From NCBI RefSeq assembly GCF_030013595.1, contig NZ_CP122768.1: 64,000 bases of DNA. The stretch is one strand, 5' to 3'. This document shows, piece after piece, positions 21,975 to 22,075 of this stretch (the stretch's first letter is position 1; each line of letters opens with the position of its first letter). The notes below the pieces were generated by a model. The model was given only the letters and a program-made list of their open reading frames with translations, did not search any database and was not told where the DNA came from. Made by a program: the position numbers and the translations under genes. This stretch comes from Escherichia coli. GTDB taxonomy: Bacteria; Pseudomonadota; Gammaproteobacteria; Enterobacterales; Enterobacteriaceae.

Positions 21975-22075
21975 ATCGGTAGCTATATGCCTGGTCGTAG
22001 CTATACGGCTTTAGCTACACGCTGGACCGTATAGCTAAACGTGTAGCTAAAAAATCCGGTTATAACCCTATCTTA
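21975..22075. repeat. Cluster of (G)TAGCTA(T/C)A repeats between int and the tRNA (candidate arm-type Int binding sites / attL)
   Basis: At least five TAGCTA-containing units; one 24-bp unit is repeated at the opposite island end (about 12050). Confidence 0.5.

Follow-up and report, generated by a model that had tools for sequence, protein, structure and literature searches.

Predicted arm-type integrase sites at both ends of a PICI-like satellite at the proL tRNA gene of Escherichia coli

The closest characterised system to the one described here is the IntS/TorI system of KplE1 (CPS-53), a defective P22-like prophage at argW of E. coli K-12. In KplE1, GGGTAAAA repeats, which are the arm-type sites of IntS (PMC2951348), are inverted just before intS, and a pair of them stands in tandem, spaced 12 bp, at the end far from int and about 55-70 bp from the core. 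The attL site holds five TorI sites in two blocks, and IntS represses its own promoter there (PMC2951348). In elements whose tRNA and int genes are co-oriented, the intergenic region is about 208-228 nt long and holds the whole att arm (PMC2951348). The integrases of two tRNA-targeting islands, HAI7 and the Yersinia HPI, are represented in the PDB by entries 3JU0 ("arm-type binding domain of HAI7 integrase"), 3JTZ ("...of HPI integrase") and 3RMP ("recognition of attP substrates by P4-like integrases"). In phage lambda, attP carries the arm sites P1, P2 and P'1-3 of Int together with IHF and Xis sites. For phage satellites of the PICI type, the features used here for comparison are those listed in PMC6092414.

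The window, which is the whole stretch of 64,000 nucleotides of E. coli DNA that was analysed, carries an island of about 10.2 kb at the 3' end of proL (Table 1). K-12 provides the empty site, in which yejM/lapC, proL and yejO are adjacent. Since both junctions align with this site and the insertion is bounded by copies of the core, the island-specific DNA extends over approximately 11986-22169. The initial annotation had held that a motif shared near both junctions helps to delimit the element and had proposed a comparison with empty proL sites; the comparison with K-12 bears out the first point, placing both junctions at core copies, and shifts the coordinates only slightly. The left core copy, taken at first to be a degenerate match at about 11966-11982, is indeed degenerate, with TTTGGTC and ACGAGAG separated by a gap of three bases, but it lies at 11972-11985. 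The native bidirectional terminator of proL and yejO has been displaced to the far junction (11934-11966, plus strand), and its place next to proL is taken by a hairpin that the island brings with it.

The integrase has the domain order Arm-DNA-bind_3, Phage_int_M and Phage_integrase, and its first domain matches PF13356 (Arm-DNA-bind_3) with an E-value of 6.7e-24. The catalytic residues R249, K276, H338, R341, H364 and Y374 have counterparts in the alignment with K-12 IntS, which is an integrase of the same type with 30% identity over 392 aa and whose central domain (2KJ8) is also matched. The N terminus matches 3JU0 (phmmer, 4.3e-20), 3JTZ and 3RMP in sequence, and the AlphaFold model of residues 1-100 (pLDDT 90.5) superimposes on all three, with 51% identity and an rmsd of 0.8 Å to 3JU0. 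Over the two islands the N-terminal domain is homologous at 51% (HAI7) and 39% (HPI) identity, with query-normalised TM scores of 0.77 and 0.71 and rmsd values of 0.8-1.1 Å. HAI7 and HPI target tRNA genes, like the window element, but they are other islands at other tRNAs and presumably have other arm motifs. Among the sequence and fold matches of the window integrase, lambda Int is absent.

The hexamer TAGCTA occurs 12 times in the window against 6.8 expected, which is only a mild overall excess. Five of these copies, however, lie within 70 bp (21980-22049) of the gap between int and proL, starting at 21980, 21998, 22012, 22032 and 22044, in agreement with the five or more units first noted there, and one lies at the far end of the island, at 12063. 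The recurrence of the unit at the opposite end is also real, since the 26-nt blocks CGTATAGCTAAACGTGTAGCTAAAAA (22028-22053) and CGTATAGCTTAACGTGTAGCTAAAAA (12047-12072) match at 25 of 26 positions, even though the original position of about 12050-12078 has to be corrected to 12047-12072. According to a repeat finder, the repeat unit is the 12-mer CGTRTAGCTAAA, whose copies differ in orientation. At one mismatch or fewer it has five matches in the 64 kb, starting at 12047, 12059, 22010 (minus strand), 22028 and 22040, all in the two island ends; 0.31 are expected, and none of 100 shuffles reached five.

The repeats do not form a single direct-repeat family, but a tandem pair and inverted copies. 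On the int side, the tandem pair is followed by two inverted units and a weak third; TTTAGCTACACG (22010-22021) is the exact reverse complement, at 12 of 12 positions, of the site at 22040-22051, and 21998-22008 pairs in inverted orientation with 22027-22037. In all, four or five copies lie at 21978-22051 and two at 12047-12070, that is, at both prophage junctions, and their motif is unrelated to the core. Read in the direction of int, the order is the tRNA end and core, three WCCGRT repeats, the terminator hairpin, three more WCCGRT repeats, the tandem 12-mers, the inverted copies and the int ATG. At the far end it is the tandem pair, a 61-bp spacer with an IHF-consensus match and the second core copy, in which the tRNA 3' end recurs in degenerate form. 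The weak int-side site is confined to the lineage of the window; an extra inverted copy comparable to it occurs at -22/-23 in L018 and L019, in relatives from Citrobacter and Escherichia sp. A further weak match at the int stop codon (20716-20727), also present in relatives, is accounted for by the coding sequence, which ends in AV and the stop.

Table 1. Positions of the features at the proL locus and in the attachment site of the island (window coordinates)
Feature	Position	Strand	Remarks
yejO, autotransporter gene	9282-11873	+	
int-distal core TTTGGTCACGAGAG	11972-11985		3 bp short relative to the tRNA-side copy and the empty K-12 site
Island-specific DNA, about 10.2 kb, PICI-like phage satellite	11986-22169		between the core copies; empty-site comparison and gene content
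IHF-consensus match AATCAAGAGGTTA	12003-12015	-	between distal core and arm pair; exact match to the consensus, of which the window has only 10
Predicted distal arm-type site CGTATAGCTTAA, pair no. 1	12047-12058	+	61 bp from the core end in 16 of 16 E. coli elements
Predicted distal arm-type site CGTGTAGCTAAA, pair no. 2	12059-12070	+	12-bp spacing; motif scan and relatives
alpA-family gene, 68 aa, candidate excisionase/regulator	19987-20193	-	Pfam Phage_AlpA 4.5e-08; PHROG "excisionase and transcriptional regulator"
int, 413-aa P4-type tyrosine integrase; N-terminal arm-type binding domain, residues 8-94	20721-21962	-	PF13356, PF22022, PF00589
Weak fifth int-side site, inverted; CATATAGCTACC on minus strand	21978-21989	-	17-28 nt upstream of the int ATG
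Predicted arm-type site, inverted; CGTATAGCTACG on minus strand	21996-22007	-	2 mismatches; repeat finder and relatives
Predicted arm-type site, inverted; CGTGTAGCTAAA on minus strand	22010-22021	-	repeat finder and relatives
Predicted arm-type site CGTATAGCTAAA, tandem pair no. 2	22028-22039	+	12-bp spacing; motif scan and relatives
Predicted arm-type site CGTGTAGCTAAA, tandem pair no. 1 on the tRNA side	22040-22051	+	exact consensus; position kept in all relatives
Three further repeats of the WCCGRT family: TCCGGT 22055-60, ACCGAT 22075-80, TCCGGC 22085-90	22055-22090		between hairpin and arm sites
Island-borne terminator hairpin	22106-22139	-	just downstream of proL; conserved in relatives with compensating changes
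Second IHF-consensus match	22117-22129	+	in the terminator hairpin loop; also among the ten exact matches
Three WCCGAT/TTCGAT repeats, candidate RDF sites	22148-22170		adjoining the core: 22148-53, 22158-63, 22165-70
int-proximal core TTTGGTCGGCACGAGAG	22170-22186		3 nt downstream of the tRNA and its 14 3'-terminal nt; three-way alignment of both junctions with the empty K-12 site
proL, tRNA-Pro(GGG); 3' end is the integration target	22172-22248	-	ARAGORN, Rfam tRNA, K-12 annotation of the empty site
yejM/lapC	22323-24083	-	

The arrangement is close to that of KplE1. The proL and int genes are co-oriented and 209 nt apart, from the tRNA 3' end at 22172 to the int ATG at 21962, which places the window in the co-oriented class; the corresponding distances in the two systems fall at about 160-210 bp. 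The WCCGRT family (ACCGAT, TCCGAT, TTCGAT, TCCGGT and TCCGGC), with one block of three on each side of the hairpin, resembles the TorI sites, which are short, centred on CG and arranged in two blocks between core and arms. The differences lie in the arm motif (GGGTAAAA in KplE1 and CGTRTAGCTAAA in the window), in the target tRNA and core, in the number of int-side copies (three in KplE1, four or five including a tandem pair here) and in the island-borne terminator hairpin, which in the window lies inside the arm. The window AlpA and TorI, both small proteins, have no significant similarity (E=0.03), AlpA being a small HTH protein, and the window element is a satellite while KplE1 is a prophage. 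The plan is also that of the lambda attP: the integrase is heterobivalent, the motifs in both arms differ from the core, attP spans about 300 bp, matches to the IHF consensus lie between the core and the arms, and the int-side arm has sites, here candidates, for a small protein (PMC2951348). It differs from lambda in the number, orientation and sequence of the sites, in having a tRNA 3' end as target and in having the int upstream region inside the att site. The literature searched, on islands at proL/yejM, on the att sites of PICIs and on P4-like arm sites, contains no description of these repeats; that search covered papers other than the structural one behind 3RMP.

The int-proximal arm is found in 382 of 5426 complete E. 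coli genomes (about 7%), including Nissle 1917. In 89 of the 382 it is at least 95% identical to that of the window, and in the others about 70-77%. All of the copies inspected are at proL, beside integrases 83-88% identical to the window Int. Eight full E. coli elements have varied cargo, with a RepA, primase or DUF927 replicase and, in some, capsid and terminase genes; each of the eight has two direct, two inverted and two distal sites, and the distance from the core to the distal pair is exactly 61 bp in 16 of 16 elements. The distal IHF-like match has the same constancy, with a +17 offset from the core and no more than one mismatch in all 16. The sites keep their positions while the DNA between them diverges to about 70% identity. 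The motif, on the other hand, varies with lineage. The window and ETEC6335 have the TAGCTA form, CGTRTAGCTAAA, while EcN and five others, among them SCU-111 and 95-3322, have CGTATAACTAAA (TAACTA/TAGTTA), and the change is found at both ends of each island.

The same architecture is preserved in other genera, as found by a scan of genome contigs. TAGTTA is the motif of E. albertii, TAGCTA that of Enterobacteriaceae LSJC7, Edwardsiella and Pantoea, and an unrelated motif, GGGACTA, that of Erwinia, Citrobacter, Rosenbergiella and an Escherichia sp. The distal pair, which lies within the DNA retrieved for five of these loci (L013, L015, L016, L017 and L019), carries the lineage's own motif family in all five. 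In four of them the first site is 119-120 bp from the tRNA end, and 85 bp separate the start of the distal pair from the second core copy; in the DNA retrieved for L016, neither the tRNA end nor a second core copy is seen. The integrases of the GGGACTA group are 53-57% identical to the window Int over residues 1-95 and 76-85% over the remainder, which indicates that the arm-binding domain diverges with the motif. P4-type integrases with 30-40% identity show the pattern upstream as well, with a tandem pair spaced 12 bp at about -70/-58 and one inverted copy around -30 to -10, so the arrangement is general for the family. Integrases 48-62% identical to the window Int (L021, L022, L024 and L025) adjoin the 3' end of the tmRNA gene (ssrA) instead of proL, and their att repeats are of a TTGGTAC type in the same tandem-plus-inverted layout. 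Residue 42 of Int (codon 21837-21839 in the window) is Ile where the sites are centred on TAGCTA (the window, L014, L016 and L020) and Leu where they are TAGTTA or TAACTA (the EcN group, F1267 and E. albertii). This exchange, which tracks the G or A at the centre of the motif, may be a candidate specificity switch, in lineages that are not independent of one another.

The fixed geometry and the switch of motif by lineage (TAGCTA, TAGTTA, GGGACTA) on both ends, following the N-terminal domain of Int, support the reading of the repeats as arm-type sites, in line with the first impression that they were probable integrase arm sites; the cognate integrase and the empty-site boundaries point the same way. 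With high confidence, the repeats can be assigned as binding sites of a heterobivalent P4-type integrase in the attachment site of a PICI-like satellite of about 10.2 kb at the proL 3' end. That is, they are very probably docking sites for the integrase that moves the island in and out of proL. The N-terminal domain (residues 8-94) would bind the 12-bp CGTRTAGCTAAA, while the C-terminal domains would act on the 17-bp core that is common to the tRNA end. In the excised circle, the core would have arm copies on both sides, seven in all. Towards int, a tandem pair would lie 119 bp from the terminal CCA of the tRNA, another three bases from the core, followed by two or three inverted copies that reach the int start codon; away from int, a second tandem pair would lie 61 bp from the core with the IHF-like site between. 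DNA bending would deliver the arm-bound Int protomers to the core to form the intasome for integration, and excision would use the intasome plus an RDF, probably AlpA. Binding by Int, the roles of IHF and AlpA, and autoregulation are what we infer from this arrangement.

AlpA, as RDF or regulator, or the product of the small ORF next to int, might bind the 12-mers in place of the integrase. RDFs, too, have short repeats in att arms as their sites, those of TorI in KplE1 come in blocks on attL, and the alpA-family gene is 1.8 kb off. SCU-111, however, dissociates these proteins from the motif, since its AlpA is 100% identical to that of the window and its small ORF is window-like (88%), yet it has an EcN-like Int and TAACTA at all six sites. 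The tandem pairs on both arms and the inverted copies abutting int mirror the arm-type sites of IntS, not the TorI sites, and the position expected of RDF sites is better fitted by the WCCGRT family, so that binding of the 12-mers by AlpA or the small ORF is improbable. In EcN-type elements, CACCGGA stands where the window has WCCGRT repeats. Whether the WCCGRT repeats track AlpA gave no discrimination, because SCU-111 combines the window AlpA with EcN-like CACCGGA and both variants share RYCGGW; these repeats are therefore kept as low-confidence candidate RDF sites only. The small ORF itself (20362-20604, minus strand), between int and alpA, is conserved in every E. coli relative at proL, matches nothing in Pfam or PHROG and ends in the AT-hook-like KCGGRPKKWKR.

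Equally improbable is a role of the repeats purely as operators for int transcription, apart from recombination. The five int-side copies do occupy the space directly upstream of the int ATG, and in KplE1 the integrase is documented to repress itself at sites of this kind (PMC2951348). The same lineage-specific motif, however, recurs as a tandem pair 10 kb away, a position that makes no sense for an operator of int, and that pair keeps its fixed distance from the second core in the E. coli elements, with a matching fixed offset in four loci of other genera. Regulation and arm-site function are, moreover, not exclusive.

On the favoured arm-site reading, since the int-side sites fill the 140 bp from the terminator to the int ATG, Int bound to them should also repress its own gene, and any int promoter is confined by the terminator to the same site-filled stretch. 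A scan of 21800-22400, which includes this stretch, found no sigma-70 consensus promoter, which leaves P_int unplaced and the autoregulation of int as something that we infer without support from the sequence.

It is more improbable still that the repeats are iterons of a satellite replication origin, clustered on circularisation. They are short and spaced by about one helical turn, and the genes of the element include one for a RepA-type helicase, but the motif is tied to the core copies, not to rep. TAACTA occurs unchanged alongside primase, DUF927 and RepA replicases, and, conversely, the RepA regions of the window and SCU-111 are 87% identical while their arm motifs differ. Taken with the SCU-111 proteins, these observations speak against binding by AlpA, by the small ORF or by Rep. 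The comparison supports the view that the arm motif follows the N-terminal domain of Int, and neither AlpA nor the replicase, although, with so few lineages, the counts of co-variation lack phylogenetic independence. Chance similarity of low-complexity DNA, or a functionless relic of duplication, would be conceivable for a short AT-rich palindrome with so mild an excess as that of TAGCTA, but is effectively refuted by the confinement of every 12-mer match at one mismatch or fewer to the arms, by the shuffles, by the 61-bp spacing and by positions kept despite divergence while the motif changes in concert at both ends.

The recombination apparatus had been described at the outset as intact. This holds for the int ORF, the catalytic residues and all of the arm sites, and AlpA looks intact too, but it does not hold for the far core, whose 3-bp deletion makes excision competence uncertain; the arm sites may now be relics in this strain. 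The deletion is one of a series. Among 16 E. coli elements (the window, L002, L007-L012 and L094-L101), the yejO-side core has deletions of 0 to 4 bp at one position, all within TC-GG-CA. It is intact (TGGTCGGCACGAGAG) in three elements, 1 bp shorter (TGGTCGCAC...) in two, 2 bp shorter (TGGTCCAC...) in six, 3 bp shorter (TGGTCAC... or TGGCCAC...) in two and 4 bp shorter (TGGCAC...) in three. STEC276, 06-00048 and Z1323HEC0108 are strains with the intact form. The lengths differ between arms that are otherwise at least 98.8% identical, and within both motif lineages. In E. albertii and Citrobacter (L013 and L019), 13-bp deletions end at the same TC/GG point. The yejO-side copy is thus a recurrent hot spot of 1-4 bp deletions centred on TC-GG-CA. 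Two readings can be given. The crossover may lie within TTTGGTC, in which case the deletions would be tolerated alleles of attP; it is also possible that they arose after integration and immobilise the element. A more speculative proposal, which we regard as rather unlikely, is that the deletions are footprints of abortive cleavage by the integrase. They would then mark the position of strand cleavage and progressively ground the satellites, while selection on proL would protect the tRNA-side copy; type IB topoisomerases leave short deletions of a comparable kind.

The gene content of the island is that of a Gram-negative PICI or cf-PICI of E. coli, with the same order of int, alpA, (icd-like), DUF4222, replicase and PerC/ProQ genes in one direction over about 10 kb. 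The int, alpA and replicase genes are co-oriented, the site is not one used by prophages, and the element belongs to the size class of about 10-15 kb; all of the elements inspected at proL (16 of 16) are of the PICI type. In relatives inserted at this site, genes for capsid, head decoration and small terminase are present. The window element differs from cf-PICIs in that it is without an intact capsid module and its packaging module looks incomplete. Two adjacent ORFs, 13845-14498 and 14563-15156 (both minus strand), match parts 115-315 and 405-544 of the 545-aa PHROG 6216, which has a weak head-protease/DUF2213 signal, and this suggests a split or decayed morphogenesis gene in a cargo that looks eroded. 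A tblastn search of the window island with a relative's ClpP/capsid fusion gave no match, which places the capsid-like ORFs of the window in a different family (PHROG 6216). About 630 bp of ETEC6335, from the icd-like gene to alpA and including a YlcI/YnfO gene, are absent from the window (19268-19907, compared with 9431-10703 of L002). The 286-aa ORF left by this absence (19122-19982) matches a "transcriptional repressor" PHROG over its C-terminal 90 aa. Just inside the distal arm, at 12096-12160, lie CCGTTAT repeats and an inverted repeat (12116-12129 and 12140-12153); this stretch also matches other chromosomal positions in other E. coli genomes and may be a shared satellite element, for example a packaging or regulatory site. 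An Rfam scan of the island returned the tRNA only.

The proL island is an ordinary but clear case of a known mechanism, and the accepted mechanism is unchanged by it. What it provides is a full map, at the level of sequence, of the att site of a proL satellite family, with the core, seven arm sites, IHF-like sites, candidate RDF sites and a replacement tRNA terminator, and this map fixes the boundaries of the island. It also reveals that, on a constant scaffold, closely related integrases work with no fewer than three arm motifs, each distinct from the others. These motifs are ready candidates for orthogonal integration tools and for studies of how arm specificity evolves.
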